A DNA stretch of 64,000 nucleotides from an uncultured Actinomycetota bacterium (GTDB lineage: Bacteria > Actinomycetota > Thermoleophilia > RBG-16-64-13), in assembly GCA_963803925.1 (NCBI GenBank), contig CAWDOM010000005.1, forward strand, positions 134,295 to 198,294. Reading direction: 5' to 3'. The position numbers and the translations under genes were made by a program. Every line of letters begins with the position of its first letter. The stretch's first letter is position 1. A model generated the notes under the pieces. The model saw only the letters and a list, made by a program, of their open reading frames with translations. It did not search any database and was not told the origin of the DNA. Below are positions 16,239 through 61,534 of the stretch, piece by piece.

Positions 16239-16281
16239 CGTGTGCCCTTCGCCGGCAACAAACGAGCAGCGCCGAGCCAGC

Positions 16282-23453: not shown

Positions 23454-23503
23454 CTTCTCGTCTCCCTCCAGTCAAATCGGTGTACAAGCGTTCACATCGG
23501 TTA

Positions 23504-23550
23504 TTGACATCCTATCGCAGCTCCTGATAGTTTTGGTGAACAATCGTTAT
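23504..23550 (+). promoter_or_regulatory. Promoter/operator block upstream of TetR paralog 2: TTGACA-N18-TAGTTT-TG-GTGAACAA-TC-GTTAT
   Basis: AT-rich divergent intergenic region between the MBL hydrolase gene and the TetR gene. Conserved with 8574..8619. Confidence 0.45.
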
Positions 23551-23616
23551 AAAGATTCTGGGCGGAGTGGCGTTGGGACGGACACCAGGGGCTTCTGCCG
23601 GGAGGGTCACCGAGCT

Positions 23617-28254: not shown

Positions 28255-29674
28255 GCTTCTAGAACTCTGCGGATTCGACGACGGAGAACGTCAGGCTCAG
28301 CTCCCCCGAGTGAAGTCGGCCTTCTCGAGGCTGGACCTGACCGAGGACGACATCAAGACGGCCAAGGAGAGGCTCCACCTCTACTACGACATGGAGTTGT
28401 CGGGCGTCAGGATGATGGTGGGCGTCCTTCTGAAGGACATGGTCGATATCGTGCTGCTTCGCGACGAGGGCGCGCGAAAGGTCATCCATTCGTGCATGGC
28501 GCCGGGATTCGAGGTGCTCGGCACGGCCATCAACACGAACTCCGACGACGTTAGGCTGACCTATCCGAACTTCACATTCATGGCGGTCCTCGGGGGTGTG
28601 TTCGGCAGGTTCGTGCCGGTGCTCGAGGCTGCCGAGCGGTTGTGGCTGCGAGGTGGCATCGTGCGCCACTGCGGCATGGTCAAGGCCAGGGTGGGCCTCA
28701 TGAGCTTGGGACTGCACCCCCGGCCCGACCTGACGGTGACCACAGGCTACCTCTGCGACACCAGTCCGAAATCAAACGAGATCATGGAAGCGGTCTTCGG
28801 CATACCGGCGTACTGCGTCGACCATGTGCAAGATCGCCGGTCCGCCGAGTTCCCCGACGGCAGCCGGCTGACCGTGTTGTCTGCCAAAGGCATGCGCAGG
28901 TTCGGCGCCGTCGTGCAGAGAGAGACCGGCCTCGAGGTGACCGACGAGATGTTGTGGCGGGCCATCCAGGCGCGACGGCCCATCGGACAGGCGATGGATC
29001 GAGTGCTCGACGTGATCCGTCTCAACGACCCTCCACCGCTCGGGGCGACTCATCTCAACCTGCTCGCGGCGCTCGGCCGGCCGCCCTACAAGGAGAGTGA
29101 GATTCCGCGGGTGGTGGAAATCCTCGACACGCTCCGCGATGAGTTGGAGAACCGCGTGCGCGGAGGCGTGGGGGCGGTTCCCAAGGGTGCGCCTCGCATC
29201 CTCGTGCTGTGCCCAAACCATCACTCCGACCCCCGCTTCGAGTACCTGTCCAACCGGCTCGGCCTGAACATCGTAGCCTCCGACTTCAACTTCTCCTCGG
29301 GAGAAGACAGGTCGGGCGCGGGCATCGTCGACCCCAACGACCCATACGATGTCATCTGCCAGCATCCTCACGGCACCCCCGGTCAATGTCTGGGGGGGCG
29401 GGCCCATATCATTCTCGACGTCTGCCGGCGCCTCCGCATCGACGGCGTCATCGACCACTACCACGCGGGTTGCAGGTACATGGCCGCCGACACCGTCGCG
29501 CTGCGCGAAACGGTCACCCGGGAACTGGGTATTCCGGTGCTGGCCTATGAATGGGACAACTTCGACCCCCGTTCGTACAACGAGAAGGACCTGGTGGCCA
29601 ACCTCGAGACGTTCTGGGGAATGGTCGAAACGAGTGGCGGCCCAATCCAGCAAGGAGAAAAACGTCATGAGTGA
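28247..29674 (+). CDS. 2-hydroxyacyl-CoA dehydratase / BcrBC-family (HGD-D) subunit, ~475 aa, pair 2
   Basis: ATG at 28247 overlaps the upstream stop by 8 nt. HCGMVKARVG and HYHAGCRY are conserved, but VLGGVFG replaces VLGCMFG of the paralog. The ORF track starts at 28088. Confidence 0.7.
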   Translation: MLELLELCGFDDGERQAQLPRVKSAFSRLDLTEDDIKTAKERLHLYYDMELSGVRMMVGVLLKDMVDIVLLRDEGARKVIHSCMAPGFEVLGTAINTNSDDVRLTYPNFTFMAVLGGVFGRFVPVLEAAERLWLRGGIVRHCGMVKARVGLMSLGLHPRPDLTVTTGYLCDTSPKSNEIMEAVFGIPAYCVDHVQDRRSAEFPDGSRLTVLSAKGMRRFGAVVQRETGLEVTDEMLWRAIQARRPIGQAMDRVLDVIRLNDPPPLGATHLNLLAALGRPPYKESEIPRVVEILDTLRDELENRVRGGVGAVPKGAPRILVLCPNHHSDPRFEYLSNRLGLNIVASDFNFSSGEDRSGAGIVDPNDPYDVICQHPHGTPGQCLGGRAHIILDVCRRLRIDGVIDHYHAGCRYMAADTVALRETVTRELGIPVLAYEWDNFDPRSYNEKDLVANLETFWGMVETSGGPIQQGEKRHE

Positions 29675-31303: not shown

Positions 31304-31336
31304 CCACATGGGTCGCACGGAGAGGATGGCTCAGTG

Positions 31337-33220
31337 ATGGGCTACGCGCATGTGTTCAAGCCTTTGAGAATCGGCAGGTTCACTGCGAAGAACCGCGTCG
31401 AGTGCGCGCCTGCCATACCCTTTCTCGCCTCGGAGGACTGCTTCGTCACCCGGGAGCTCGTCGAGTGGTACCGGAGCATAGCCAAAGGCGGCGCGGCCGT
31501 CGTGACCATAGGCGAGACGTCGATCGACTACGAGGACGCCCGCTTGCACGGGCGGGCGAACGTGCTCTGCCTGGGCGACAACCGGTCCATCCACGGTCTG
31601 TCGGTTCTTGCCGAGACCATCCAGCGCTACGACGCCCTCGCCTCCATCGAGCTGAACTACGAAGGGCTCCGCGCGCCGACGGACATGACCGCGGGCGAGA
31701 TCGAGACCGTCATCGAGCGTTTCGCCGATGCGGCAGCCCGCTGCAGACATGCGGGCATGGACATGATCATGATCCATGGAGGCCATGGCCACCTGTTGGG
31801 GAGCTTCTTCTCGCCGGTCACCAATAGGCGCTCCGACCGATACGGGGGAAGCCTTCAGAAACGAGCCCGGCTCGCTCTGGAGGTGCTGGAGGCGGTGCGC
31901 AAGAAGACCGGCAACGATGTCGCCATCGAGTACCGGCTGAGCGCCGACGAGTTGACGCCGGGTGCGCCTTCGGTTGACGAAACCATCGAATTCGCCCAGA
32001 TGATCTCGGACAGGATCGATCTGCTGCATGTGTCGGCGGGCAACATCACGGTGCCCAACACCTGTCCCAGGATGATCCCGCCCATATACCTGCCGCGCGG
32101 CACGAACGTGGAGTATGCGGAGCGCTTCAAGCGCGAGCTGAGCGTCCCGGTGACCGCAGTCGGCTCCCTCACCATGGACATGGCCGAGGAGATCATCGCT
32201 CAGAACAAGGCCGACATGGTCGCCATGATCCGCTCCATCATCGCCGACCCCGATTGCGTGGCGAAGGCGAAGACCGGCCGGCACGCGAGCATACGACCCT
32301 GCGTTCGCTGCAACCGCTGCGTCTCCGAGACCCGAGAGTTCACGCGACCCACTCGCTGCACGGTGAACCCCGTCGCGGGCAGGGAGGCGGAATTCGTGAA
32401 CCTGGCGGCGCCGTCGGGCATAAGAAAGGTCGTTGTGATCGGCGGAGGGCCCGCGGGCATGGAGGCCGCGAAAACGGCGGCCGGGCGTGGCCACGACGTC
32501 GTGCTGTTCGAGAAGGATGCCCGCTTGGGCGGAGCCCTCATCCAGGCGTCGGCTCTGTCATTGAAGAACGACATGAAGACCTACCTCAAGTGGGCGGAGC
32601 GGGCGACGGCGCAGACGCCCGGACTCGAGGTCCGGCTCTCGACTGAAGCGACCGTCGACGCCGTCACGGCGGAGCACCCGGACGTGGTGATCGTCGCCCT
32701 GGGCGGCTCTCCCCGCGTACCCGAACTGCCCGGCATCGACCGGCAGAACGTCATGCTGGCGGGCGATGCTCATGCGGACGGCACGAGGACCGGCGACAAA
32801 GTGGTGGTAGTGGGCGCCGGGATGGTGGGCTGCGAGACGGCTCTGGGTCTTGCTCAGGAGGGCGAATCGGTAGTTCTTGTCGACATGCTGCCCCTCGACC
32901 GGATCGCCCTTGACGCTCACCCGATCAGCAGGACGGCCCTCTTCGCCATGCTGAGGAGCGCTTCTGTCGAGATCGAGGCCCAAACGAAGCTCGAAGCCGT
33001 TACCGCAAGCGGTGTGATCGTCAGCCGTGGCGACGGCAGCAGGGCCGAGATCGCCTGCCACTCTGTGGTGCTCGCCACGGGTGTGACACCCCGCCGCGAG
33101 CCGGAGCGGCTCTTCGAGGCCCTTTGCCACGAGGTTCACGTCATCGGCGATTGCAGACGGGCGGGCGGAAACCTGCGCACGGCCATAGCCGATGGATTCA
33201 ATGCGGCAATCGACATATGA
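31337..33220 (+). CDS. OYE / 2,4-dienoyl-CoA-reductase-like FMN + [4Fe-4S] + FAD/NAD(P) oxidoreductase, paralog 3 (intact)
   Basis: 627 aa with MIHGGHGHLLGSFFSP, RPCVRCNRCV and VVVIGGGPAGMEAA motifs. Confidence 0.8.
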   Translation: MGYAHVFKPLRIGRFTAKNRVECAPAIPFLASEDCFVTRELVEWYRSIAKGGAAVVTIGETSIDYEDARLHGRANVLCLGDNRSIHGLSVLAETIQRYDALASIELNYEGLRAPTDMTAGEIETVIERFADAAARCRHAGMDMIMIHGGHGHLLGSFFSPVTNRRSDRYGGSLQKRARLALEVLEAVRKKTGNDVAIEYRLSADELTPGAPSVDETIEFAQMISDRIDLLHVSAGNITVPNTCPRMIPPIYLPRGTNVEYAERFKRELSVPVTAVGSLTMDMAEEIIAQNKADMVAMIRSIIADPDCVAKAKTGRHASIRPCVRCNRCVSETREFTRPTRCTVNPVAGREAEFVNLAAPSGIRKVVVIGGGPAGMEAAKTAAGRGHDVVLFEKDARLGGALIQASALSLKNDMKTYLKWAERATAQTPGLEVRLSTEATVDAVTAEHPDVVIVALGGSPRVPELPGIDRQNVMLAGDAHADGTRTGDKVVVVGAGMVGCETALGLAQEGESVVLVDMLPLDRIALDAHPISRTALFAMLRSASVEIEAQTKLEAVTASGVIVSRGDGSRAEIACHSVVLATGVTPRREPERLFEALCHEVHVIGDCRRAGGNLRTAIADGFNAAIDI

Positions 33221-33271: not shown

Positions 33272-34723
33272 ATGAGTGAGATACCTGTGCAAGCCGACGT
33301 GGTCGTGGTCGGCTCTGGTGCGGCAGGCATGTCCGCGGCGGTCACCGCCGCTGAGGGCGGAGCGAGGGTAGTCGTCTTCGAGAAGCAGCGGTCTCTGGGT
33401 GGTACCACCAACTTCCTGCACGGCACGTTCGCCGCCGAGAGCGACATGCAACGCGAGCGCTTCATCGATTTCACACGCGATGAGGCCTTCCGGCACATCA
33501 TGGACTACAGCCATTGGCTGGCGAACCCCTGGCTGGTGCGCGCCATCGTCGACGAGTCGGGGGCGACCATACGTTGGCTGCAGGACCGGGGCGTCGTATT
33601 CACCGACGCGACTATCAACATGCTCGGCTGTCCGCGCACGTATCACATCGTGAAGGGCAAAGGCGAATCCATCGTCAAGGCCCTCGTCACCCAGGCGAAG
33701 GGCAAGGGAGCCGAGGTGCTGCCGGGTCTGCCGGTCACCGCGTTGCTGAAGGAGGGCAACCGAGTCACCGGAGTGCTGGTCGACGACGACGGGCAAGAGG
33801 TCGAGGTGGCTTGCAGGGCCGTCATGCTCGCGACCGGTGGCTTCGCCAACAACAAGGATTGGATCAAGAAGTACTGCGGCCTCGAGCTCGGAGTCGACGT
33901 CATACCGATCGGCAACACCGGCAAGATGGGTGACGGCATCCGCATGGCCTGGGAAGCGGGTGCGGCCGAAGAGGGCATCGAGGTACTCGAGGTTTTCCGA
34001 GTGGCTCCCATTGGTCCGGAGTTCTCCGGCTTCTGCGAGCTCGAGATGGCAGCGATGCAACCCGATCTCTGGGTGACCCCCCTCGGCAAGCGGTTCTGCG
34101 ACGAGACCATCGGCTACTGGGACAGCCATGTCGGCAACGCCAACGTGAAGTGGGGCAAGAGCGGCTACACCTGGAGCGTGTTCGACGATTCGATCATCGA
34201 CAAGATTATGCAAGACGGCATCACCAGGAACATCAGCGTGGAGTTCCTGCCGGGACACAAGCCTCAGAACATCCGCAGGGAGATCCAAGCGGCCATCGAC
34301 AACGGGAGCACCGAGGTGGTGGCAGCCGACTCGGTCGAGCAACTCGCCGCGAAGATGGGCGTCGAACCGGCGATGCTGCGGGCGACGGTCGACGAATACA
34401 ACGCCGTCTGTGCAGACCATCGCGACCCGATATTCGCGAAAGACCGCAAGTATCTTCGCCCCCTGACCGGCCCGCGCTACTACGCCGTCAAGGGCCACAC
34501 GGTATTCCTGGGAACTATGGGCGGCATCAGAATCAACGAGAAGACCGAGGTGCTCGACAAGAAGGATATTGTGATTCCCGGTCTGTACGCGGGTGGCTTC
34601 GACGCCGGTGGCATGTACGGAGACAGCTACCCCATCAAAGGATCGTCAGGCCTTGCCTCGGCCTTCGCCCTTGCCTCCGGACGCATCGCCGGCCAGAACA
34701 TGCTCCAGTATCTCGGAACGTAG
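33272..34723 (+). CDS. FAD-dependent flavoprotein, fumarate-reductase / KstD-like (FAD_binding_2), paralog 2
   Basis: VVGSGAAGMSAAV...GTMGGIRIN...GLYAGGFDAGG. Confidence 0.8.
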   Translation: MSEIPVQADVVVVGSGAAGMSAAVTAAEGGARVVVFEKQRSLGGTTNFLHGTFAAESDMQRERFIDFTRDEAFRHIMDYSHWLANPWLVRAIVDESGATIRWLQDRGVVFTDATINMLGCPRTYHIVKGKGESIVKALVTQAKGKGAEVLPGLPVTALLKEGNRVTGVLVDDDGQEVEVACRAVMLATGGFANNKDWIKKYCGLELGVDVIPIGNTGKMGDGIRMAWEAGAAEEGIEVLEVFRVAPIGPEFSGFCELEMAAMQPDLWVTPLGKRFCDETIGYWDSHVGNANVKWGKSGYTWSVFDDSIIDKIMQDGITRNISVEFLPGHKPQNIRREIQAAIDNGSTEVVAADSVEQLAAKMGVEPAMLRATVDEYNAVCADHRDPIFAKDRKYLRPLTGPRYYAVKGHTVFLGTMGGIRINEKTEVLDKKDIVIPGLYAGGFDAGGMYGDSYPIKGSSGLASAFALASGRIAGQNMLQYLGT

Positions 34724-36675: not shown

Positions 36676-38124
36676 CTATCGCCTCAGGTATAGCAGCATG
36701 CTCGTCGCGGCGAGCCGGCCGGAATTGAAGGCGAAGGCCGAAGCCAGGCCGGACGAGCCCTTGATAGGATAGCTGTCGCCATACATGCCGCCCACGTCGA
36801 AACCACCGGCATAGAGGCCGGGGATGGCGATGTCGTCCTTGTTGACGGCCTCCATCTTGCCGTTGACCCTGATGCCGCCCATCGTTCCCAGAAAGACCGT
36901 TCGACCCTTGACCGCGTAGTACCGGGGGCCGAGGAGGGGCCGGAGAAATCTCGGCTCCTTGGCGAACAGACTATCGCGACCAGCCGCACAATAGCCGTTG
37001 TACTCGTCGACGGTGGCCCTCAGCAGTTCGGCATCGGCACCCATCTTCTCGGCCAACTCCCCTACCGAGTCCGCAGCCACCACTTCGCTACTCCCCCGCT
37101 CGAGAGCCGCCTCGATCTCCTTGAACACGTTCACCGGCCGGTAGCCGGGCATGAAGTCCGCCCCGACGTTGTTGTCGACGCCACGCTCGATCATCTCACC
37201 CAGGATCGCGTCGTCCAGGAGGTTCCAGGTGTAACCATCGCGCGCGTACTTCGCGTTCGCGTTGCCGACGTGCGTATCCCAGAAAGCCACCGTCTCGTCA
37301 CAGAAACGCTCCCCGCGCGGCGTCACCCACAGGTCGGGCTGTGCTGAAGCGATCTCGATGTCGTTCCATGTAGCGAAGTCGGGGGCGAGGGGCGCCACCC
37401 TGAAGAGCTCGAGTAGAGCGACACCCTCCTCCGCGGCGCCGGCCTCCCAGGCCATGCGGATGCCGTCGCCCATCTTCGCGGTGTTGCCGATGGGCACGAC
37501 GTCGCGCCCCAATTCGAAGCCACAGTACCGCTTGATCCACTGCGCGTTGTTGGCGAACCCGCCCGTTGCGATCAGCACGGCGTCGGTCGCGACCTCGGTC
37601 TCCTCCCCGTCCACATCGGCCACGACGCCGGCGACACGACCCTCCTCTTTGACCAGCGAGGTGACCGGCGTCTCGGCCAGGATCACCGCTTCGAGGCTCT
37701 TCGCCCTCACGACGAGGGCTTTCACCACGGCCTCGCCTTTGCCCTTGATAACGTGGTACGTTCGCGGGGCTTCGGGCATGTTGATAGTAGCCTCAGTGAA
37801 CACCACACCCCGCTCCCGCAGCCAACCGATGGTGGAGGCCGACTCGTCGATGATGGCCCTGACCAGCCGGGGATTGGCCCGCCAGTGGCTGTAGTCCATG
37901 ATGCTCTTGAAGGCCTGATCGCGCGTGAAGTCGATGTAGCGCTCACGCTGCATGTCGCTCTCCACGGCGAACGTCCCGTGGATGAAGTTCGTTGTGCCTC
38001 CGAGCGAGCGCTGCTTCTCGAAGACGACAACCTTCACCCCAGCCTCAGCTAGCGTGACCGCGGCCGCGAGGCCGGTCGCGCCGCAACCGACTACGACGGC
38101 ATCGGCCCGCGCCGGGACTTTCAT
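36676..38124 (-). CDS. FAD-dependent flavoprotein, fumarate-reductase / KstD-like (FAD_binding_2), paralog 3
   Basis: VVGCGATGLAAAV...GTMGGIRVN...GLYAGGFDVGG. Confidence 0.8.
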   Translation of the reverse strand: MKVPARADAVVVGCGATGLAAAVTLAEAGVKVVVFEKQRSLGGTTNFIHGTFAVESDMQRERYIDFTRDQAFKSIMDYSHWRANPRLVRAIIDESASTIGWLRERGVVFTEATINMPEAPRTYHVIKGKGEAVVKALVVRAKSLEAVILAETPVTSLVKEEGRVAGVVADVDGEETEVATDAVLIATGGFANNAQWIKRYCGFELGRDVVPIGNTAKMGDGIRMAWEAGAAEEGVALLELFRVAPLAPDFATWNDIEIASAQPDLWVTPRGERFCDETVAFWDTHVGNANAKYARDGYTWNLLDDAILGEMIERGVDNNVGADFMPGYRPVNVFKEIEAALERGSSEVVAADSVGELAEKMGADAELLRATVDEYNGYCAAGRDSLFAKEPRFLRPLLGPRYYAVKGRTVFLGTMGGIRVNGKMEAVNKDDIAIPGLYAGGFDVGGMYGDSYPIKGSSGLASAFAFNSGRLAATSMLLYLRR

Positions 38125-39572
38125 CGCCCGAGATACTTCAGCGCGCTCTTGCCGGCGATGCGCCCCGAGTTGACAGCGAACGCCGAGGCCAGGCCGGACG
38201 AGCCCTTTATGGGATAGCTGTCGCCGTACATGCCTCCAGCGTCGAAGCCGCCCGCGTACAGGCCCGGGATGATGTCGTCCTTCTTGTCGAGCACCTCCAG
38301 CTTGCCGGTCACCTTGATGCCGCCCATGGTGCCGAGGAATACAGTGCGGGCGCGAGTCGCGTAGAACCCCGGACCGACGAGCGGGCGCAGGTAGCGCGCA
38401 TCCTTGGCGAACAGCTCGTCATGACCCTTGGCGCAGTAGCTGTTGTACTCGTCGACAGTCGCCTTCAACACTGCCGGGTCGATCTCAAGCTGTGCGGCAA
38501 GACCTTCCAACGAACCGGCGGCGAACACCTCGCCGCTGCCGTGGTCGAGAGCCGCCTGGATCTCGTTGCGCAGATTGGTCAGCTTGTACCCGGGCGGAAA
38601 GTCCATGCCCACGCCTTTGTCCAGGCCCCACGTCATCAGCCGCTCGACGACAGTGTCGTCGAAGATGCTGAAGGTGCAGCCGTCCTTCATGAACCTTCCC
38701 TGGGCGTTGCCGACCGGGGTGTCCCAGAAAGTGATGGTCTCGTCGCAGAACCGCTCGCCGCGAGCCGTCACCCAAAGGTCGGGCTGCGCCGACGCCTGCT
38801 CCAGGTTGCAGCCCATGGCGAACTCCTCGCCCACCGGTGCCACTCGGAACATTTCGATGGTGCGCACGCCTTCCTCTGCCGCGCCCACTTCCCAGGCCAT
38901 GCGCAACCCGTCTCCGGTCTTGCCCGTGTTGCCCACGGGAAAGAGGTTCACTCCGAGGTCGTAGCCGGTGTACTTCTTGACCCACTCCTTGTTGTTGGCG
39001 TAGCCGCCGCTGGCGACCACGACCGCCTTGACCGCCACTTCGACCTCTTCGCCGTCTGACTCAACGATGACGCCACCGACCCGGTTGCCTTGCTTGAGTA
39101 TGGCCACCACTGGGGTGCCGGGTAGAAACGTCACTCCCTTGGCCCTCGCCTGGTCGACCAGGGCCTTCACGACCGCTTCGCCCCTACCCTTGATGACGTG
39201 GTAGGTGAGCGGCGACTCGGGCATGTTGATGGTCGCGTCGGTGAACACGACACCCTGGCTCTGCAGCCAACCAATGGTCGCACCCGACTCGTCGACGATC
39301 GAGCGCACCAGCCGGGGATTGGCCATCCAGTGACTGTAGTCCATGGTGTTCTTGAAGCACTGGTCGCGCGTGTAGTCCACGTAGCGCTCACGCTGCATGT
39401 CGCTTTCGACGGCGAAGGTGCCCTGGAAGAAGTTCGAGGTGCCCCCCAGAGACCTCTGCTTCTCGAACACGACGACCTTCGCTCCGCCCTCGGCCAGGGT
39501 CAGAGCCGCGGCCAAACCGGTGGCGCCGGAACCGATGACCGCTACGTCAGCATTCTCGGGAATGGAACCCAT
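38121..39572 (-). CDS. FAD-dependent flavoprotein, fumarate-reductase / KstD-like (FAD_binding_2), paralog 4
   Basis: AVIGSGATGLAAAL...GTMGGIKVT. ATGA overlap with paralog 3. Confidence 0.8.
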   Translation of the reverse strand: MGSIPENADVAVIGSGATGLAAALTLAEGGAKVVVFEKQRSLGGTSNFFQGTFAVESDMQRERYVDYTRDQCFKNTMDYSHWMANPRLVRSIVDESGATIGWLQSQGVVFTDATINMPESPLTYHVIKGRGEAVVKALVDQARAKGVTFLPGTPVVAILKQGNRVGGVIVESDGEEVEVAVKAVVVASGGYANNKEWVKKYTGYDLGVNLFPVGNTGKTGDGLRMAWEVGAAEEGVRTIEMFRVAPVGEEFAMGCNLEQASAQPDLWVTARGERFCDETITFWDTPVGNAQGRFMKDGCTFSIFDDTVVERLMTWGLDKGVGMDFPPGYKLTNLRNEIQAALDHGSGEVFAAGSLEGLAAQLEIDPAVLKATVDEYNSYCAKGHDELFAKDARYLRPLVGPGFYATRARTVFLGTMGGIKVTGKLEVLDKKDDIIPGLYAGGFDAGGMYGDSYPIKGSSGLASAFAVNSGRIAGKSALKYLGR

Positions 39573-39582
39573 GCCGAACCTC

Positions 39583-41694
39583 CTAGTAGTTGCCCCAGAA
39601 CTTCACTGCTTGGATCTTCAGCCGGAGATCGCACTGTAGGCAGCGCTCCGACTCATATCTCGCCTCGTCCTCTTGCATGGTGCGGCTCATCTCGCAGAAG
39701 CCGGTCAGCCGTTCTTCGGCCGGGAGCAGGCAGGTCCCGGCGCCGCGGGCAAGCTGCGCGAACCCCTCGCCCGGCCCCAGGCGCGGGTCGAGCTCGGCCA
39801 CGGGCGCCAGCTTGCGGTCTATGCGACCGCTGCCTCCCAGATACTTGTCCATGGCGACTGCCGCCTTGCGACCCGAAGCGATGGCCTTGATCACTGTGGA
39901 TGTGCCGTACACCGCGTCGCCGGCGGCGAACACGCCCTCACGACTGGTCGACAGCGAATACTCGTCGAGCTCCACCAGACCCCGGTCGGTCTTGTCCACC
40001 CCGAACCCCTCAGGGAGGTCTGGCCGCTGGCCGACCGCGAAGATGACAGTGTCGGCGTCGACCACGTGGTTGGAATCGCCCACCGTCTCGATTTGCGGAA
40101 GACCGTTCTCATCGAAGTGGAAGGTGTCAACGTCGAGTAGCTCGACTCCGGTCACCCTGCCATCGCTAGCGTGGATTCGGGTGGAAGTGTGGGCGGCATC
40201 GATTGTGACGCCTTCATCCTCGCCCTGCTCGATCTCCTCGGCGCTCGCGGGCATCTCGGCGCGGCATTCCAGGCAGGCGATGCGGACCTCTTCGGCGCCG
40301 AGGCGTCGCGCCACGCGGGCGCAATCGAATGCCACGTTGCCGCCACCCAGCACGACGACTTTGCCGCCCAGAGCCACCTCGTTGCCCAGACTCACGTCGC
40401 GCAAGAAATCGACGCTGACCAGGGCGCCCTCGCTGTTCGCGCCCGGTAAGCGGAGCTTCGCCCCCTTGTGCGCTCCCACGGCGATCAGCGCCGCGTCGTA
40501 CCCCTCGTCTACGAGCGCGTCGACCGACTCCACCCGCGTGCCGGTCTTGATCATCACCCCAGCGTTCGCGATCTCGTCGATCTCGCTCTTCAGCACCTCG
40601 CGCGGCAGCCGGTACTCGGGCACCCCATAGCGCAACATGCCCCCCGGCTCAGGCAGGGCCTCGAAGACCGTGACCTCGTGCCCCTGCAGACGCAGCGCGT
40701 AGGCCGCCGTCAGGCCGGCCGGCCCGGCGCCCACGATGGCAACTCGCTTGCCGGTGTCGTCTTTGGGCGTGGAGTTTTCTCTCCAGAGCGCCACGTCGTC
40801 CCGAGCCGCCGCGAAACGCTTCAGCTCCCTGATGGAGACCGCTTCGTTCACGTGCCCGCGCCGGCACTCGCTCTCACACGGATGCTCGCACACGTAGCCC
40901 AGCACCAGCGGGAACGGCACCTTCTCTCTGATCACGGCCACGGCGGTCGCGTAGTCGCCCTCCTTGATCGCCCGCACATAGCGGGGAACGTCGATCTCGG
41001 CCGGACACGTGCTCTTGCAGGGAACGAGAGCCGCTTTGCGATTCCTGTCCTGCATGAGCTCTTCTTTGTCCTGTATGGCCCCCGTGGGGCACACTTCGGC
41101 ACACGTCCCGCAGAACCGGCAGCCGGAATCGGCCAGGGATTCGCCTTCGGCGGTGTAGATATATGACTCGCTGCCCCGCTTCTTGTAGTGCAAGACGTTG
41201 ATCTCGCGCAGGTCGCCGCAGGCCCGCACGCACCGGCCGCAGAGCACGCACTTGTTAGGATCGTATACAAGAAGCGGGTTGCGGGCGTTGACCGGCAAGA
41301 GCTTTGGCCGCCTGTTGACACGGAGTTCCTCGACGCCCAGATACTGCTTGAGCGATTGGAGTTCACAGTTGAGGTACTTCTGACAGGTGCCGCATTCCGG
41401 CGGATGCCCTACCAGGAGCAGCTCCATAGCCAGCCTTCGCAGACGGGAGATCTCGTCAGACTGGGTGCGTACGACCAGGCCGTCGGCGACCGGGGTCGAG
41501 CACGCGGCCACCACGCCGTCCACTCCCTCTACCTCGACGACGCAGAGCCGGCAGACGCCTCCCGGCGGCAGATCGGGATGGTCGCACAGGTGAGGCACGT
41601 AGATGCCGGCTTCGAGGGCGGCGTGCAGCAGGCTGCCACCCGTCTCGGCCGTCACCTCGCGGCCGTCGATGGTGAAGCTGACGGTCGCGCTCAT
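39583..41694 (-). CDS. Multidomain FeS flavoprotein: N-terminal [2Fe-2S] ferredoxin (NuoG/FdhA-N-like), two [4Fe-4S] ferredoxin motifs, and a C-terminal glutamate-synthase-small-subunit (GltD)-like FAD/NAD(P)H oxidoreductase
   Basis: 703 aa with CxxC..C cluster motifs (CDHPDL..C..C; CGTCQKYLNC; CVLCGRCVRAC; CRFCGTCAEVCP) followed by VAIVGAGPAGLTAAY ... GDAVYG. Confidence 0.75.
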   Translation of the reverse strand: MSATVSFTIDGREVTAETGGSLLHAALEAGIYVPHLCDHPDLPPGGVCRLCVVEVEGVDGVVAACSTPVADGLVVRTQSDEISRLRRLAMELLLVGHPPECGTCQKYLNCELQSLKQYLGVEELRVNRRPKLLPVNARNPLLVYDPNKCVLCGRCVRACGDLREINVLHYKKRGSESYIYTAEGESLADSGCRFCGTCAEVCPTGAIQDKEELMQDRNRKAALVPCKSTCPAEIDVPRYVRAIKEGDYATAVAVIREKVPFPLVLGYVCEHPCESECRRGHVNEAVSIRELKRFAAARDDVALWRENSTPKDDTGKRVAIVGAGPAGLTAAYALRLQGHEVTVFEALPEPGGMLRYGVPEYRLPREVLKSEIDEIANAGVMIKTGTRVESVDALVDEGYDAALIAVGAHKGAKLRLPGANSEGALVSVDFLRDVSLGNEVALGGKVVVLGGGNVAFDCARVARRLGAEEVRIACLECRAEMPASAEEIEQGEDEGVTIDAAHTSTRIHASDGRVTGVELLDVDTFHFDENGLPQIETVGDSNHVVDADTVIFAVGQRPDLPEGFGVDKTDRGLVELDEYSLSTSREGVFAAGDAVYGTSTVIKAIASGRKAAVAMDKYLGGSGRIDRKLAPVAELDPRLGPGEGFAQLARGAGTCLLPAEERLTGFCEMSRTMQEDEARYESERCLQCDLRLKIQAVKFWGNY

Positions 41695-42833
41695 CGACCC
41701 GCTCCCGGACAGCGCTTGGCCTGCAGGTGCGCCGCGAAGTCGTCGGCAAATAGCTCGGCGGCGCTCAGGGCCGGCAGCGCCGCGCCCTGGCCAAGACTAC
41801 AGATGCTGCCCGGCTTCATGGCCTCGCCCAGCTCGCGCAGCAGATCCATCTGCTCCTCGGTCGCCCGGCCTTCGACGGCCTCGTTCAGAATATCGAGCAC
41901 CTGCCGCGATCCCTCACGGCAGAACACGCACTTGCCGCACGACTCCTCGTGCAGACGGGCGGTGATATCGCGAGCCATCTCGACTCCACACCGCCCGGCC
42001 GCGAACACCTCGACTCCCCCCCAACCCATTCCGGTTCCCGCCTCGCGGAGTGTCTCGTGGTCGATCGGGGTCTCGAGGGCCTCGCCGGCCAGGAAAGGCC
42101 CCGCCGGCCCGCCGAACTGTACGGCCTTGATCTCGGCTGCGCGGAGCGGACGGCCCTCCACTTGCTCTATGGCCGCGCGTATGGTCGTGCCCAACGGCAC
42201 CTCGACCGTGCCGGGCTTCGTCACGTCGCCGAACACCGCGATCACCTTCGTCCCAGCGCCTTCGACGCCGTCCTGCTCGCTGAACACCGCCGCGACCGCC
42301 GCCAGGGTCTCGGCGGTCTCGACCAGCGTCGGCGCGCCCGCGGCTCCGGCCGCGCTGCCGGCGCCGCGCAGATACGGCAGCGGTTGCCTGCCTTCGAGCG
42401 CCCTGATGAGGGCGGTCTCTTCGCCCGTGACGAGAGAGGCGGGCACCTCGACTACGCGAATACCCGCCGCGCCGCTGCCGCCGCTCGCCGGCGCGCCTTC
42501 CACGGCCTGGGTGAGCGCCGCGAACCCCTCGCTCTCAGGATCCACGCACACCACGCACGAATCGGCTCCCACGGCGTGGCCCGCGATCAGCAGACCATCG
42601 AGTACCGCTCGAGGGTTGCGCCGCAGAACGAAACCCGACACCTCCGCCCGCCGGTCGCCATCGACCGCGTTGCAGACCACGACCTTGCCGGCCCCCGGCG
42701 CCTCGCGCACGCGCAGCCAGCGGTCGGCGAGCAGCCGGCCGGCGCCCCCTTGCTCGCGCAACCCGGCCTCTTGCAGACGGGCGATGACTTCTTCGGCCTT
42801 GAGCTCCAGCACCTGCTCGGGAGTCAGGGTCAC
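41691..42833 (-). CDS. NuoF / HoxF-like NADH-dehydrogenase FMN-FeS subunit homolog (SLBB + 4Fe-4S)
   Basis: EQGGAGRLLADRW...VVCNAVDGD... and ESCGKCVFCREG. A GTG start with a GGAGG RBS is preferred; the ORF track's TTG start is at 42848. ATGA overlap with the downstream gene. Confidence 0.6.
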   Translation of the reverse strand: MTLTPEQVLELKAEEVIARLQEAGLREQGGAGRLLADRWLRVREAPGAGKVVVCNAVDGDRRAEVSGFVLRRNPRAVLDGLLIAGHAVGADSCVVCVDPESEGFAALTQAVEGAPASGGSGAAGIRVVEVPASLVTGEETALIRALEGRQPLPYLRGAGSAAGAAGAPTLVETAETLAAVAAVFSEQDGVEGAGTKVIAVFGDVTKPGTVEVPLGTTIRAAIEQVEGRPLRAAEIKAVQFGGPAGPFLAGEALETPIDHETLREAGTGMGWGGVEVFAAGRCGVEMARDITARLHEESCGKCVFCREGSRQVLDILNEAVEGRATEEQMDLLRELGEAMKPGSICSLGQGAALPALSAAELFADDFAAHLQAKRCPGAGR

Positions 42834-43123
42834 ACGACCTCCACCCAATGTCCGATCTCGCCGGGCGCCCTGAACAGAGGCTCGATCGTCGCGCCGAACT
42901 TCTTGAAGTGCTCGGTCGAAAGGTGGTAGGCGATCGCCTTCTCGTCTTCATACTGCTCGTAGAAGATGAAATCGTCGGGGTTCTCGGCCGAGCGATGCAG
43001 CGAATAGAGGATGGCCCCGGGATCGCTCATGACGAGGGGCCGCATCCACGTGTAGGCGGCGATGAACTCCTCTGCCTTGCCCGGCGCTATGTGCACTTCA
43101 GCCGTGATTATCTTCATGATCAA
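42830..43123 (-). CDS. ABM (antibiotic-biosynthesis-monooxygenase-like) domain protein
   Basis: 97 aa; ferredoxin-like ABM pattern. Confidence 0.5.
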   Translation of the reverse strand: MIMKIITAEVHIAPGKAEEFIAAYTWMRPLVMSDPGAILYSLHRSAENPDDFIFYEQYEDEKAIAYHLSTEHFKKFGATIEPLFRAPGEIGHWVEVV

Positions 43124-43169: not shown

Positions 43170-44180
43170 TCATCCGAAGTCGATGCCGTAGCCCCGCGCA
43201 TAGAACATCGCCGGCTTCGGCATGAGCATGCGCCACACCTCGCCGCACGCAGACAGATCCTCGGCGCTCAATTCGAGCTCCAGCGCACCGAGGTTCTCGT
43301 CCAACTGCTCGACCGACGACACCCCGCACACGACGGAAGTCACCAGCCGGTCGTGGAGCAGCCAGGCGATCGACAACTGAGACAGGCTGCGGTCGCCCGC
43401 GATCTCCTTCAGCCGTCTGACCGCGCCGAAGTACCTGGGGTCCCATGTGGCGGGATACGGCTTGACGCCCGGAGGTGGCGGCTTGGTGGGGTCGTGCTCG
43501 AGGAATCTGCCCGACAGCATGCCTCCGGCCAGAGCTCCCCAGACATTGATGCCGACTCCCTCGGCTTCGCACAGCTTGGTCATCTCGATCTCACAATCGC
43601 GGGCCACGAGATTCCACACCAACTGGATGCAGTCGGGCCGGGCCAGACCGTGCTTGTCGGCGTGCCAGAGTGCCTTGCACACCTGCCACGCGTAGAAGTT
43701 GGAGAGCCCTACATAGAGGACCTTGCCCTCGCGCACCAGGTCGTTCAGAGTGTCGAGCGACTCCTCGATGGGCGTAGTGTAGTCGGGCTCGTGCAGGTAG
43801 TAGATGTCGACGTAGTCGGTCTGCAGGCGCCTGAGGCTCTCCTCGAGGCTCAGCCTGAGGTGCTTGCGATTGAGTCCCCGGTCGTTGACGCCCGGCCCCG
43901 TGATCGCCGCGACCTTGGTCGTCAGCACCACCGAGTCGCGCCTGCCCTTCAAGGCCCGGCCGACGACCTGCTCGGCCGGTCCGCGTTCGGGCGTGTCCCA
44001 CCTGTCTTTGCCGTAGATGTCGGCTGTGTCGAGGCAGTTGACACCCGCGTCCAACGCCCGGTCGACGATCCGGACCGCGGTCGGCTCATCCACCTTGTTG
44101 CCGAACCAGAGAGTGCCGAGCGCGAGCGCCGACACCTTCAGGCCCGACTTTCCCATCCTGCGGTACTCCATCGGTGACAT
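43170..44180 (-). CDS. Aldo/keto reductase
   Basis: MEYRRMGKSGLKVSALALGT... with D-Y-K-H catalytic residues. GAAGGAGAT RBS. Confidence 0.85.
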   Translation of the reverse strand: MSPMEYRRMGKSGLKVSALALGTLWFGNKVDEPTAVRIVDRALDAGVNCLDTADIYGKDRWDTPERGPAEQVVGRALKGRRDSVVLTTKVAAITGPGVNDRGLNRKHLRLSLEESLRRLQTDYVDIYYLHEPDYTTPIEESLDTLNDLVREGKVLYVGLSNFYAWQVCKALWHADKHGLARPDCIQLVWNLVARDCEIEMTKLCEAEGVGINVWGALAGGMLSGRFLEHDPTKPPPPGVKPYPATWDPRYFGAVRRLKEIAGDRSLSQLSIAWLLHDRLVTSVVCGVSSVEQLDENLGALELELSAEDLSACGEVWRMLMPKPAMFYARGYGIDFG

Positions 44181-50255: not shown

Positions 50256-51789
50256 TCACTCGCTCAGCGGAGGTGCCGGCACGCCCTTGAGCCTGCCCTT
50301 GCTTATGCCCCAGAAGTCCTCGATAGAGGTGTAGTAATCCATCGCCCGGCCTTCGGCCTTCTCGCGCTCGGCCACCTTGGCGCGGTGGAACTCTTTGATG
50401 TCTTCGGGAATGGGCAGGTTGCCGAAGTCGAGGTAGCGGCAGGCGCCGTCGTTGTCGCGAATTCCGAGCACCTTGTCGGCCGCGTGTACGTTGATCGACA
50501 TGGGCGAATCGAGCACGCCCGCTTCCACGGCCTTGATGGTGCCGACGGCGATATCGCCATCGCCCAACTCAACGACCTTGTCGAGAATCGCGTGCACCTC
50601 AGCCTGGCACACTTCTTCTTCCTGGCGGATCGCCGCGTTGTCGACCTCGAACTTCTGGTCTTTCCAGCAACCCAGGATCCACTGTGCCGCCAGGTAGCTC
50701 TGACGATGCGAATCGGCGCTGGGAACTCCGGCCGCTTCGTCAACGGTCTTCACCGAGACCACGTGGCACCCGCCCATGGCCGCGGTCAGCGCGGTGTAGC
50801 CGATGTAGCCGAAGGCGCTCCCCATCTCCTGCGGGAAGGGGAAGAGCGGCGATTGGCTGCCGAACACCCCCGCGATCTCGACGTCGCTATGGCCGAACTT
50901 GTCGAGATAGTGGCGCATGAGCTTCGGCAGAGAGTGGAAGTCGGCGATGTCCTGGTTCAGGCAACCCTGCAGGTTGACCTGGCAGAAGACGCTCTTCACA
51001 CCCTGCTCGGCCGAGATGAGCGACTCGATGATCTGCGTGGCCATGTTGACGCTCATGGGGATCACGAAGTTGGGCAGCCACCCGTGCGTATCGGTGGTGA
51101 TGATCACCCCGTGATCGGCGTAGTAGCCGATGAGTCTGCCCGTGTACTGGGCAGTCTCGATGCATTCCTCGACCGTAGCCTTCTTGTCGTAGCCGGCGAT
51201 CCAGCCGAAGAAGCTGTTGGGAAACGCGCTCATGCCCGAAGCGAAGGCCATCTCACCCACCAGGGCTTGTCCTATGCGCGACGAGCGGGGGTCGAGGGCC
51301 CCGTCGCACGCCTCGACCACCCTGCGGTTGGCCTTGACGCCGTGGTTGATGATGGGGTAGCCGTTGAGAGCCGCCTTGCCGGTACGGATGCTCTCCTGCG
51401 AGGCCTTTCTCCACCTTGTCGAGCTGCAGATTGCGCGTGTAGCTGTCGGTGGTGAGCGGCAGCAAGTGGATGCCCAACTCGTTGAGAGACCGGATCAACT
51501 CGATCTCCCTGTCCACGAGCGGCGTGCCCTGCCGCGGAAAGAGCGAGATGCGGCCTTCCGCGCGCACCCGCTGGAGGATCTTGTGGAACTTCTTCCCGTC
51601 GGGCAGCGACTTGTGATAGGCGACGGCCTCCTCCAGGTCGACCTCTTTGCCGGTCGGCCAGGTGGCGAGCACTTCCGCGTGCCTCTGCATGAAGACATCT
51701 TCATCCATGCGCTGCTGTTTGACCCTGATCAAAGCCCCTCCTCCAATCTCACTCCGCACGCGTCGGCTCTCGTGGCGTTGTTCAGTCAT
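50256..51789 (-). CDS. Glutamate mutase E-subunit (methylaspartate mutase epsilon, GlmE/MutE)-like protein, frameshift near 51300
   Basis: N-terminus AEVLATWPTGKEVDLEEAVAYHKSLP and a large TIM-barrel body. The two ORFs 51253..51789 and 50256..51320 are in different frames. Confidence 0.55.
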
Positions 51790-61533: not shown

Positions 61534-61534
61534 C

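Follow-up and report, generated by a model that had tools for sequence, protein, structure and literature searches.

Bfu-type Nfn transhydrogenases, such as the NfnABC enzymes of Caldicellulosiruptor saccharolyticus and Thermococcus sibiricus and StnABC of Sporomusa ovata, are built from NuoF-like and GltD-like modules. In NfnABC, electrons pass from FAD through clusters A7, A6, A3, A2, A1 and B1 (PMC11829005). The bifurcation core of Bfu enzymes is defined by BfuC/NuoE, the C-terminal B3/B4 domain of BfuB and the FMN/NAD site, and the C-terminal ferredoxin domain is needed for ferredoxin reduction (PMC9304861, PMC11829005). A Lys cluster ligand is typical of the non-bifurcating StnC flavin, whereas bifurcating NfnB has Glu (PMC10482914). 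GltD-like modules relay NAD(P)H electrons via [4Fe-4S] clusters to a second flavoenzyme, and in dihydropyrimidine dehydrogenase the second flavin reduces a C=C bond (PMC8097209). NuoF homologues without B2-B5 are found in Syntrophus aciditrophicus HydAB, complex I Nqo1 and Fds formate dehydrogenase (PMC9304861, PMC7311640), and the FAD_binding_2 protein VprA (481-aa model) has been characterised as a lone gene product (PMC10295242).

We analysed a window of 64,000 nucleotides from an uncultured Actinomycetota bacterium, in which four linked minus-strand ORFs combine such modules with two flavoproteins, FlvA and FlvB. The features are as follows:

36676..38124, minus strand: FlvB (482 aa), FAD_binding_2, E 5e-50
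38121..39572, minus strand: FlvA (483 aa), FAD_binding_2, E 5.5e-53
39583..41694, minus strand: 703-aa iron-sulfur flavoprotein (Pfam, NCBIfam and PDB matches)
39625..41037, minus strand: GltD-like module (aa 220-690) of the 703-aa protein, Fer4_20 and Pyr_redox_2
40261..40278, minus strand: ACLECR (aa 473-478), end of the nucleotide-binding beta-2 strand (motif comparison)
41071..41694, minus strand: N-terminal iron-sulfur domains (aa 1-208), Fer2_4, NADH-G_4Fe-4S_3 and Fer4_Nqo3
41691..42833, minus strand: apparently vestigial NuoF/BfuB-like subunit (380 aa from GTG 42833; Pfam, fold match and motifs)
41799..41945, minus strand: N3/B1 [4Fe-4S] segment, ESCGKCVFCREG ... SICSLG (Cys299, 302, 305 and 345)
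42306..42755, minus strand: five eroded FMN/NADH motifs (aa 27-176; motif alignment)
42830..43117, minus strand: ABM-fold protein (95 aa), Pfam ABM, E 3e-18
43170..44180, minus strand: aldo-keto reductase (336 aa), Pfam Aldo_ket_red, E 2.7e-73

The tight linkage with two 4-nt overlaps, described in an earlier sequence-only reading of this DNA, was confirmed: ATGA stop/start overlaps lie at 38121-38124 (FlvA/FlvB) and 41691-41694 (NuoF-like/703-aa gene), and FlvA is separated from the 703-aa gene by 10 nt with a GGAGG ribosome-binding site inside the gap. In the case of the NuoF-like ORF (41691-42848), the TTG start at 42848 assumed in that reading is less likely than GTG 42833, which is the form called in public assemblies and fits the 376-aa orthologues. 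None of the four proteins contains a CxxCH heme motif or a twin-arginine N-terminus, or any hydrophobic segment above KD19 1.7; for the two flavoproteins, this agrees with the earlier statement that they lack heme, Tat signals and membrane anchors. A soluble unit is supported. Upstream, the ABM gene overlaps the NuoF-like start by GTGA and is thereby translationally coupled to it. The ABM gene was found in the loci L001, L003-L013 and L088 and in none of the non-actinobacterial loci (tblastn; Pfam gene lists for L002 and L083-L085), and its product is a lineage-specific accessory. The aldo-keto reductase gene, with a strong GAAGGAGA ribosome-binding site, lies 52 nt upstream of ABM; it is syntenic in L001 and L003-L013 (61-79% identity) and is kept upstream of the module in the actinobacterial lineage only. 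The transcription unit probably reaches upstream to both genes, the aldo-keto reductase gene probably being its first.

In the 703-aa protein, a NuoG/HoxU-type N-terminus is followed by a fused GltD-like FAD/NAD(P)H domain (Fer2_4, NADH-G_4Fe-4S_3, Fer4_Nqo3, Fer4_20 and Pyr_redox_2). Residues 5-213 match HydA/NuoG N-termini in the PDB and residues 224-689 match the GltD-like domains of NfnA/StnC; mean column identity within the family is 75% across phyla. The sequence-only reading had recognised the NuoG-type [2Fe-2S] cluster and the GltD domain correctly but counted three clusters, whereas ligands for six are present: [2Fe-2S] (Cys37, 48, 51, 65), His-ligated [4Fe-4S] (His97, Cys101, 104, 110), two ferredoxin-type [4Fe-4S] (Cys149, 152, 155, 159 and Cys192, 195, 198, 202) and two GltD-type [4Fe-4S] (Cys230, 269, 273 with Lys292, and Cys226, 277, 685, 688). 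The N-terminal ligands are invariant in alignment A3 and across 98 loci. The GltD-like module, with the FAD motif VAIVGAGPAGL and the nucleotide loop GGGNVAFDCAR, aligns with C. saccharolyticus NfnA at 347 bits, and its Lys aligns with K170 of NfnA/StnC; the module is an intact one of NfnA/StnC type. Lys is the cluster ligand in the Flv-linked fusions, as in StnC. Furthermore, ACLECR stands in place of the (I/V)YRRTR NADPH motif of Nfn/Stn-type relatives, with CLE in 84/84 Flv-type fusions and YRR in all six fusions adjoining NuoE and an intact NuoF. Glu476 of this motif suggests a preference for NADH over NADPH, following a general Rossmann-fold rule that comes from outside this family. We predict that the 703-aa protein is the electron entry point and wire.

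The Pfam matches of the NuoF-like protein are limited to Complex1_51K, SLBB and NADH_4Fe-4S. The AlphaFold model (pLDDT 88.5; Foldseek TM 0.89-0.91 to NfnB/HydB/NuoF) indicates that the NuoF core fold is kept, while neither an N-terminal thioredoxin-like domain nor a C-terminal 2x[4Fe-4S] ferredoxin domain is present. This protein had been read as a nucleotide-binding and [4Fe-4S] module, and an alignment of its FMN/NADH motifs, set beforehand as a check, did not bear out the first half. Only 16/38 residues are left over five motifs, namely EQGGAGR (canonical GRGGAGF), NAVDGDRRAE (NADEGDPGAF), VPASLVTGEE (GAGAFVCGEE), RGAGS- (RPPFPA) and ETAET (NNVET); motif 1 still has the central GGAG, and the eroded positions differ between close orthologues (ERGGAGR, AGRGAGR, A-SGDGR, GKGAAGR). 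As such, the protein appears to have lost the NADH site and, in this lineage, the FMN site. The [4Fe-4S] half stands: the N3/B1 cysteines are invariant in alignment A1 and conserved in essentially all 80-odd NuoF-like partners, gut-type remnants included. A search for a NuoE-like partner, also proposed earlier, found none, either across the window or among the Flv-linked loci; NuoE is confined to the six loci that have an intact NuoF.

These results bear on the bifurcating or confurcating enzyme suggested by the sequence-only reading, in which 2 NAD(P)H would be oxidised and the exergonic C=C reduction by Flv would be coupled to endergonic ferredoxin reduction. By general thermodynamics, a typical enoate couple lies far enough from NADH to drive this, both iron-sulfur proteins come from the bifurcating Nfn-Bfu lineage (best structural matches NfnB and NfnA), FMN-type motifs persist in deeper NuoF-like orthologues (GRGGAGY, RPPYPA, NN.ET), and gut-type versions retain a 2x[4Fe-4S] domain resembling the ferredoxin-docking C-terminal domain. 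However, all three parts of the Bfu core are missing or eroded here, the cluster ligand at the GltD-like FAD is Lys as in StnC, not Glu as in NfnB, and there is no ferredoxin gene within the operon. Since the NuoF site is eroded and NuoE and the C-terminal ferredoxin domain are absent, a picture with two pyridine-nucleotide entry points loses its basis, and we regard bifurcation as quite improbable.

The two flavoproteins had been assigned to the fumarate-reductase family as a pair. Both are FAD_binding_2 proteins, but FlvB, a paralogue of FlvA (64% identity), is found in some relatives only (L004, L013); one Flv is universal and the second is a lineage-specific duplicate, predicted to be a second catalytic subunit or to have an alternative specificity. 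The fumarate-binding residues H365, R402, H504 and R545 of Fcc3 are replaced by F, W, L and Y in Flv, so that a fumarate reductase is ruled out, and the active site is aromatic/hydrophobic and of a non-fumarate type. The nearest curated family is the vinyl phenol reductase VprA, with 328-355 bits against an equivalog cutoff of 600 (NCBIfam). The C=C reductase role proposed earlier is the most plausible one, and FlvA is predicted to be the universal catalytic flavoprotein of the module, an ene-reductase with a hydrophobic active site. Flv is also weakly similar to 3-ketosteroid delta-1-dehydrogenases and 4-oxocyclohexanecarboxylate desaturases (~100-150 bits, NCBIfam), and among the neighbours are genes typical of alicyclic/aromatic catabolism, with many SDRs as well as OYE-type enzymes, CoA-transferases and dehydratase-like genes. 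Both would suit an oxidative module, in which Flv as a KstD/ChcC-like desaturase/dehydrogenase makes the C=C bond and sends electrons via the iron-sulfur wire to NAD(P)+. This direction seems very unlikely, considering that the best family match is a reductase, that by general thermodynamics C-C desaturation with NAD(P)+ as the acceptor is strongly endergonic (enoate/alkanoate vs NAD+), and that the hosts are anaerobes, where C=C bonds are usually electron sinks.

We compared the locus with relatives at ~98 loci from several phyla and gut metagenomes. Across this set, the fusion gene (NuoG-type N-terminus and GltD) adjoins a FAD_binding_2 Flv, and the FlvA orthologue adjoins it in Actinomycetota, Dehalococcoidia, Spirochaetes and metagenomes. 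The NuoF-like, fusion and Flv genes are adjacent in 11/11 Actinomycetota genome loci, as well as in Dehalococcoidia L002, Spirochaetes L083 and L085/L088. Because the association recurs across phyla, it is not due to chance. In loci with at least 3.5 kb on each side, Flv lies within 5 kb of 34/36 CLE-type fusions versus 0/3 YRR-type fusions (Fisher p ~0.001), and it is found in none of the six related loci where a YRR fusion accompanies NuoE and an intact NuoF. In the gut-type loci L138, L143, L149, L154 and L162, one ORF of 928-984 aa comprises the NuoF remnant, which retains the N3 cysteines, 2x[4Fe-4S] and Flv; several independent assemblies include a called gene for a 918-aa NuoF-remnant::Flv form. 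Synteny, translational coupling and these natural fusions support the earlier proposal that the iron-sulfur proteins and the FAD_binding_2 flavoproteins are one conserved functional unit. It had been presented as a candidate new complex, and we found no published description of it in the literature searched.

The association has exceptions. In at least six loci, the fusion and Flv occur while the NuoF-like gene is absent; some lineages can therefore do without this subunit, which makes its role in the present operon uncertain. In Dehalobacter sp. DCM (L086), PrpF, aconitase-like and ICL genes come after the NuoF-like/fusion pair and the 6 kb downstream contain no Flv, so the pair can serve other partners or act alone. 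This locus would fit two separate, co-regulated enzymes, a free NAD(P)H:ferredoxin (or other acceptor) oxidoreductase and a self-sufficient VprA-like FlvA/B, as would the Flv paralogues of the window at 33272-34723 and 3035-4582, which have no adjoining iron-sulfur gene; since the characterised VprA is the product of one gene, Flv might need no partner. We nevertheless consider separate enzymes unlikely, given the natural fusion proteins, the near-constant adjacency in complete loci, the ATGA/GTGA coupling and 10-nt spacer, and the presence of Flv exactly where NuoE, the NADH site and YRR have been lost. Moreover, characterised FAD_binding_2 reductases are mostly fed by an accessory heme, FMN or iron-sulfur module, such as the heme domain of Fcc3 or the NADH/FMN domain of HcrB.

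We therefore favour, with a probability of about 0.6, a soluble, non-bifurcating, probably NADH-dependent, iron-sulfur-wired ene-reductase derived from a Bfu-type Nfn ancestor. NAD(P)H, probably NADH, would reduce the FAD in the GltD-like domain by hydride transfer, and electrons would exit singly via that domain's two [4Fe-4S] clusters, the proximal one Lys-ligated as in non-bifurcating StnC/NfnA. The NuoG-type clusters would then carry them to the N-terminal [2Fe-2S], and from there to the FAD of FlvA/FlvB, either straight or via the N3/B1 cluster of the NuoF-like subunit; this order is suggested by homology to NfnABC/StnABC, and a physical complex of the iron-sulfur proteins with Flv is presumed. 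The NuoF-like subunit would be an evolutionary remnant of BfuB that lost NuoE, the ferredoxin-binding C-terminal domain, the NADH site and, here, the FMN site, and may now support the flavoprotein as a scaffold or an iron-sulfur adaptor. On thermodynamic grounds, Flv would work reductively on a C=C bond in a hydrophobic substrate that is not a dicarboxylate; vinylphenols, phenylpropenoid-type compounds and alpha,beta-unsaturated carbonyls are candidates. Simple reduction of an enoate by NADH wastes roughly 300 mV, and anaerobes often conserve such energy; this loss counts against a plain NADH-driven, non-bifurcating ene-reductase.

Compared with Bfu-type Nfn, the NuoF-like protein best matches NfnB/StnB/HydB in sequence and structure, the GltD-like domain most resembles that of NfnA/StnC, down to the Lys-ligated proximal cluster, and the same cluster kinds join FAD, [2Fe-2S] and B1; the six loci with NuoE, intact NuoF and YRR look like genuine Bfu-type Nfn on the same fusion architecture. 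In contrast, the present operon lacks NuoE/BfuC, the thioredoxin-like N-terminus of BfuB and the C-terminal B3/B4, its NADH/FMN motifs are eroded, and CLE replaces YRR. The domain order differs too, as GltD comes after the NuoG-type clusters here and is inserted before them in Bfu-type Nfn. An Fdh-like domain is missing (703 aa vs ~1170 aa), and a FAD_binding_2 flavoprotein is added as presumed terminal acceptor. The non-bifurcating NuoF enzymes (HydAB, Nqo1, Fds) are similar in having no B2-B5 clusters, and in them B1/N3 serves solely to connect with the NuoG-like subunit, but those proteins bind FMN and oxidise NADH, whereas both sites seem to be gone from the NuoF-like protein here. The proposed path from NAD(P)H through FAD and a [4Fe-4S] chain to a second, catalytic flavin resembles that of glutamate synthase beta subunit/dihydropyrimidine dehydrogenase, although the acceptor belongs to the fumarate-reductase/KstD superfamily (FAD) rather than being a DHODH-like or GltB FMN protein, and the wire is NuoG-type with a NuoF remnant, not an 8Fe-ferredoxin-like domain. 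Finally, flavocytochrome c3 fumarate reductase, UrdA, Lactobacillus HcrAB and VprA share the FAD_binding_2 catalytic fold and cytoplasmic or soluble C=C reduction, with the catalytic FAD served by a separate donor module. Flv differs from flavocytochrome c3 and UrdA in lacking the fumarate and urocanate carboxylate-binding residues, and the donor here is a seven-cluster iron-sulfur module of GltD type in place of the hemes, FMN_bind domain or FMN reductase of that group.

Four tightly packed minus-strand genes had been described in the sequence-only reading, and the open reading frames, their ATGA overlaps and Pfam searches bore this out, with all of the domains assigned to the four proteins being recovered. 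Together with two genes directly upstream, they are arranged as follows:

36676-38124, minus strand: FlvB, FAD_binding_2 flavoprotein, 482 aa
38121-39572, minus strand: FlvA, FAD_binding_2 flavoprotein, 483 aa
39583-41694, minus strand: fusion protein, iron-sulfur flavoprotein, 703 aa
41691-42833, minus strand: NuoF-like subunit, 380 aa from GTG 42833
42830-43117, minus strand: ABM-fold protein, 95 aa, its stop overlapped by the NuoF-like start as GTGA
43170-44180, minus strand: aldo-keto reductase, 336 aa, 52 nt upstream of the ABM gene

ATGA overlaps were present at the FlvA/FlvB and NuoF-like/fusion junctions, and the 10 nt between the fusion gene and FlvA contain a GGAGG site. For the NuoF-like gene, the most likely start is GTG 42833 and not TTG 42848: public assemblies record the 380-aa form, and its closest orthologues measure 376 aa. 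Considering the GTGA overlap with the ABM gene and the short distance to the aldo-keto reductase gene, the transcription unit probably comprises six genes; a scan for promoters and terminators yielded nothing exceeding shuffled expectation. All four operon genes are full length and match orthologues of independent assemblies. The expectation that their products are soluble was also upheld: a motif and segment scan found no heme motif, twin-arginine N-terminus or membrane-spanning segment in them, so that heme, Tat export and membrane anchoring were ruled out.

In the fusion protein, residues 1-208 constitute a NuoG/HoxU-type module with a [2Fe-2S] cluster (Cys37, 48, 51 and 65), a His-ligated [4Fe-4S] cluster (His97, Cys101, 104 and 110) and two ferredoxin-type [4Fe-4S] clusters, and residues 220-690 constitute a GltD-like FAD/NAD(P)H domain with two further [4Fe-4S] clusters. 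In the latter, which matches Fer4_20 and Pyr_redox_2, conservation covers both the loops for FAD and nucleotide and the eight cluster ligands. The family has a mean column identity of 75% across Actinomycetota, Dehalococcoidia, Spirochaetes and Syntrophorhabdales, and the closest relatives, from Thermoleophilia, Gaiellales and Actinomycetota MAGs, are 70-74% identical. By sequence, the GltD part is nearest to NfnA of C. saccharolyticus (347 bits), NfnA of T. sibiricus and StnC of S. ovata. A Glu ligand on the proximal [4Fe-4S] cluster beside the bifurcating FAD is the hallmark of the NfnB type (PMC10482914). In place of this Glu of the bifurcating NfnSL/NfnAB enzymes, the fusion protein has Lys292 (in IRELKRF), which aligns with K170 of StnC, a ligand of the FAD-proximal [4Fe-4S] cluster, and recurs in 94 of the 97 relatives aligned there. 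After the GGGN.A.D.AR loop, the nucleotide motif, which we read across the relatives by hmmalign, is ACLECR in the window and not the NADPH-type YRR. Since the 2'-phosphate is usually kept out of Rossmann-type sites by an acidic residue at such a position, the exchange of both YRR arginines for Leu-Glu suggests that the site switched to NADH, a change that would make sense given the predicted loss of the NADH site in NuoF.

The AlphaFold model of the NuoF-like subunit has a pLDDT of 88.5 and a TM score of ~0.9 to NfnB, HydB, StnB and NuoF of complex I; as this confident model superposes on all of them, the NuoF core fold is predicted to be kept. The four cysteines of the N3/B1 [4Fe-4S] cluster (Cys299, 302, 305 and 345) are invariant. 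The FMN/NADH motifs, on whose integrity the proposed NuoF entry point depended, proved to be eroded when aligned: the canonical GRGGAGF, NADEGDPGAF, GAGAFVCGEE, RPPFPA and NNVET read EQGGAGR, NAVDGDRRAE, VPASLVTGEE, RGAGS- and ETAET, respectively, in the window. Only 16 of the 38 motif residues are retained in the pocket segments, and the subunit does not have the intact FMN/NAD(H) site of BfuB, whose flavin belongs to the B1-FMN-C1 flavobicluster. Because the same positions also differ between the closest NuoF-like orthologues, this variation indicates relaxed constraint, and we infer that the FMN and NADH sites have probably been lost. The domains found are Complex1_51K, SLBB and NADH_4Fe-4S only, with the chain spanning the Rossmann-like domain to residue 380, just past the four-helix bundle; the N-terminal thioredoxin-like and C-terminal 2x[4Fe-4S] (B3/B4, IPR017896) domains are absent. 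Longer NuoF-like orthologues (~555 aa) in other phyla keep the N-terminal domain with its [2Fe-2S] cysteines replaced. A search for a BfuC/NuoE-like partner, the subunit that bears the [2Fe-2S] cluster C1, by tblastn with four NuoE-like proteins of related loci came up empty for the 64-kb window and for every Flv-linked locus, the matches being confined to six loci with intact NuoF. With eroded motifs, no BfuC and no B3/B4 domain, a bifurcating enzyme with double entry through NuoF and GltD, as the sequence-only reading suggested, is not what the operon encodes.

To place the module among its relatives, we compared ~98 loci encoding relatives of the fusion protein (handles beginning with L), drawn from 11 Actinomycetota genomes, 80 metagenome contigs including human gut, and single contigs of Dehalococcoidia, Spirochaetes, Syntrophorhabdales, Dehalobacter and JGI samples. 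An HMM search placed a NuoF-like gene next to the fusion gene in 82 of the 98, and a Flv homologue lies at most 5 kb away in most loci with sufficiently long contigs, many of the contigs being truncated. Two classes separate cleanly on NuoE, the NuoF motifs and the GltD motif. Class I (L125, L137, L144, L146, L148 and L150; n=6) has a NuoE-like gene, intact NuoF motifs (37-38/38) and (I/V)YRRTR as the GltD nucleotide motif, whereas Class II (84 loci, among them the relatives of the window's module) lacks NuoE, has degenerate motifs (at most 27/38 where a NuoF-like gene is present) and carries CLE. The N-terminal [2Fe-2S] and C-terminal ferredoxin domains of NuoF were seen for Class I in L125, the sole sequence fully read, and are absent or degenerate in Class II; the NuoF ORFs of all six Class I loci have 624-667 aa. 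No Class I locus has Flv within 5 kb, as against 34 of the 36 Class II loci with at least 3.5 kb on both sides; the difference (34/36 versus 0/3; Fisher p ~0.001) is indicative only, as the loci are not phylogenetically independent. Judged by these features, Class I seems to represent genuine Bfu-type Nfn enzymes that use the same fusion architecture. With NuoG-type clusters first and GltD last, their domain order is unlike that of the solved StnC/NfnA, and they would seem to be an architectural variant of Bfu-type Nfn not described so far.

The module is abundant: the fusion protein has at least about 8000 matches and Flv at least about 2100, the best 120 of each being at least 61% and at least 65% identical, respectively, and the matches listed originate from soil, sediment, digester and human gut samples. 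Its genes are misannotated as 'formate dehydrogenase beta', 'NuoF' and 'fumarate reductase'. A further 69 gut Firmicutes/Coriobacteriia loci (L014-L082), with fusion-like proteins ~35-43% identical, were set aside as a different family; at the thresholds used, they have no NuoF-like or Flv neighbour except for a NuoF-like match in Sporobacter L037 and L059.

The link to Flv is most direct in five gut-type loci, in which a single ORF of 928-984 aa encodes a strongly reduced NuoF-like domain with the N3 cysteines, a 2x[4Fe-4S] ferredoxin domain and a complete Flv:

L138, 7980-10763: NuoF-remnant/Flv fusion
L143, 4270-7083: NuoF-remnant/Flv fusion
L149, 4414-7209: NuoF-remnant/Flv fusion
L154, 4045-6996: NuoF-remnant/Flv fusion
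L162, 2386-5190: NuoF-remnant/Flv fusion

These genes lie directly downstream of the fusion-protein gene; the L162 contig was sampled from human gut, and the other four contigs carry no label of origin. Their products are nameless in every source, and a 918-aa form is a called gene in several independent assemblies. In at least six other loci, the fusion gene is followed directly by Flv without a NuoF-like gene. From both arrangements, the fusion protein and Flv appear to make up the invariant core; the NuoF-like protein, in the loci that retain it, appears to act as a shrinking adaptor in contact with Flv. Synteny, coupling and fusions indirectly support the predicted electron delivery from the GltD-like module to Flv. 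An exception is Dehalobacter sp. DCM (L086; CP092282.1, 1916253-1933917), where no Flv lies within 6 kb downstream of the NuoF-like/fusion pair. The pair is followed there by PrpF, aconitase-like large and small subunits, a PEP-mutase/ICL-family gene and PrpD, and it may have other client enzymes.

FlvA and FlvB are 64% identical and show the FAD_binding_2 fold (PF00890, E 5e-53 and 5e-50, respectively), with an N-terminal GxGxxG...E and a C-terminal GLYAAG-type motif. FlvA is universal among the Flv proteins of the module, and FlvB is limited to some close relatives. Two more paralogues in the window are 64-65% identical to FlvA/FlvB:

33272-34723, plus strand: Flv paralogue, no iron-sulfur partner gene alongside
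3035-4582, minus strand: Flv paralogue, no iron-sulfur partner gene alongside

With four Flv genes and one fusion/NuoF-like pair in the window, one electron-input module might serve several Flv catalytic proteins, and it is conceivable, though unlikely, that all four are interchangeable clients. Fe-S flavoenzymes of the OYE/FadH type adjoin Flv paralogues at 31334-33220 (plus strand), 5530-7137 (minus strand) and 14414-15190 (plus strand); they are BaiCD-/bilirubin-reductase-like (~400 bits, below cutoffs), and two of them appear to be truncated. An OYE gene is likewise paired with Flv in the Spirochaetes locus L083 (12696-14810).

As for the reaction of Flv, the residues responsible for fumarate binding and proton delivery in Fcc3 are His365, Arg402, His504 and Arg545 (Shewanella frigidimarina numbering). 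When aligned to Shewanella flavocytochrome c3, these positions are Phe, Trp, Leu and Tyr in FlvA, and FlvB, the paralogue FlvC and the orthologues carry identical or comparable substitutions; a MYGDSY segment is invariant. With all four residues replaced, a fumarate reductase was rejected, and the substitutions point to an aromatic/hydrophobic pocket. The best curated family is VprA (NF053717, equivalog), of which FlvA, FlvB and FlvC, with 355, 328 and 347 bits against a cutoff of 600, are not members; the 3-ketosteroid dehydrogenase and cyclohexanecarboxylate desaturase families score far below VprA. In the actinobacterial lineage, the module is accompanied by a branched-chain-type ABC importer, an aldo-keto reductase, an ABM protein, short-chain dehydrogenases, a GCV_T protein (in some relatives), a glycyl-radical enzyme and OYE-type enoate reductases. 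This context fits anaerobic processing of plant-derived aromatic/alicyclic compounds and is only a lead.

The glycyl-radical enzyme lies a few genes from the module in both Actinomycetota and Spirochaetes (L001 16334-19876, L088 13142-16693, L083 1-1737, window 767-2037), followed in L001 and L088 by a radical-SAM activase and a B12-binding protein. The window looks like an anaerobic catabolic island, given three HGD-D genes (2-hydroxyacyl-CoA dehydratase/benzoyl-CoA-reductase-like), an aldehyde:ferredoxin oxidoreductase and a hydantoinase A/B pair (acetone- or acetophenone-carboxylase-like), located at 16240-18865 (plus), 28088-29674 (plus), 51782-53674 (minus) and 54659-58405 (minus), together with at least seven SDR genes; no HGD-D activator was found among the scanned ORFs. 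A 434-aa protein (60631-61935, minus strand), which joins 4Fe-4S ferredoxin motifs at about residues 84-107 to an IclR effector domain at the C-terminus, may be a transcription regulator that senses redox state or iron-sulfur. The TetR-family regulator at 23062-24345 (plus strand) has its DNA-binding domain from residue 201, and the ~200-aa N-terminal extension, which has no Pfam match, may equally stem from a miscalled start or from fusion through a frameshift. Splits or truncations affect several genes (767-2037, 11818-13403, 18862-20302, 50256-51320): a PFL-like gene in two pieces, PrpD whose N-terminal and C-terminal halves lie in different frames, ABC transporter fragments, and MutE beginning at profile position 97, which suggests frameshift errors of a long-read MAG or pseudogenes.

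In NfnABC/StnABC, NADPH reduces the FAD of the GltD domain, and electrons pass through the GltD clusters, the NuoG-type clusters, the [2Fe-2S] cluster and B1 to the FMN of the NuoF-type subunit (PMC11829005, PMC10482914). All of these stations but the FMN are conserved in the module, which is the basis of the path that we propose. NAD(P)H would reduce the GltD FAD of the fusion protein, the electrons would cross its six clusters to the Flv FAD, optionally via N3 of the NuoF-like subunit, and the Flv FAD would reduce a C=C substrate.

Such a reaction entails a large free-energy drop, which leaves a small chance that the module is a new class of flavin-based bifurcating ene-reductase, where NADH would reduce a high-potential C=C bond at the Flv FAD and also ferredoxin. 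Bifurcation would then take place at a site other than the Bfu flavobicluster or an NfnB-type FAD, the candidates being the Flv FAD and a residual flavin of the NuoF-like protein. We consider this improbable. The BfuABC family was defined in PMC9304861 and its core refined in PMC11829005, and this core (BfuC, FMN site, B3/B4 domain) is gone from the module; moreover, the GltD FAD has the Lys of the non-bifurcating StnC and not the Glu of the bifurcating NfnB (PMC10482914). Bifurcation by the module is thus unlikely on the features of its proteins. What stands of the soluble complex proposed in the sequence-only reading is a conserved, apparently undescribed soluble iron-sulfur flavoenzyme system with fumarate-reductase-family proteins at its centre, which is not of the double-entry bifurcating kind.

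If the path from GltD to Flv is right, a seven-cluster-deep, GltD-driven supply is added to the known ways of powering enzymes of the fumarate-reductase superfamily, and the module becomes a candidate for the anaerobic reduction of plant-derived or alicyclic unsaturated compounds. The loci would likewise form a natural series in the dismantling of Nfn-Bfu, in which NuoE, then the NADH site, then the FMN site were lost and NuoF was then fused to Flv or deleted, while the remaining nucleotide site went from YRR to CLE. Such a series would help in testing what bifurcation requires of the Bfu core.

No description of this gene combination was found in the literature searched. The text on the Adlercreutzia equol cluster ('glutamate synthase' plus an iron-sulfur flavoprotein) is too unspecific to be tied to the module, and the isoprene reductase paper concerns a different, 901-aa GltD-like protein. 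In comparison with Nfn, the GltD part is nearest to NfnA/StnC and shares with Stn/NfnABC the Lys-ligated proximal [4Fe-4S] cluster, but YRR, NuoE and the Fdh-like tail are absent. While Stn/NfnABC proteins (~1170 aa) have GltD near the N-terminus, inserted after the [2Fe-2S] domain and followed by a NuoG/Fdh-like part, the window fusion has its NuoG-type clusters before GltD in 703 aa. Glutamate synthase works on the same principle as the proposed path, and so does dihydropyrimidine dehydrogenase, in which a GltD-like module drives C=C reduction at a second flavin (PMC8097209). Taken all together, the module seems best filed with these GltD-driven two-flavin reductases, as a putative descendant of Bfu-type Nfn.
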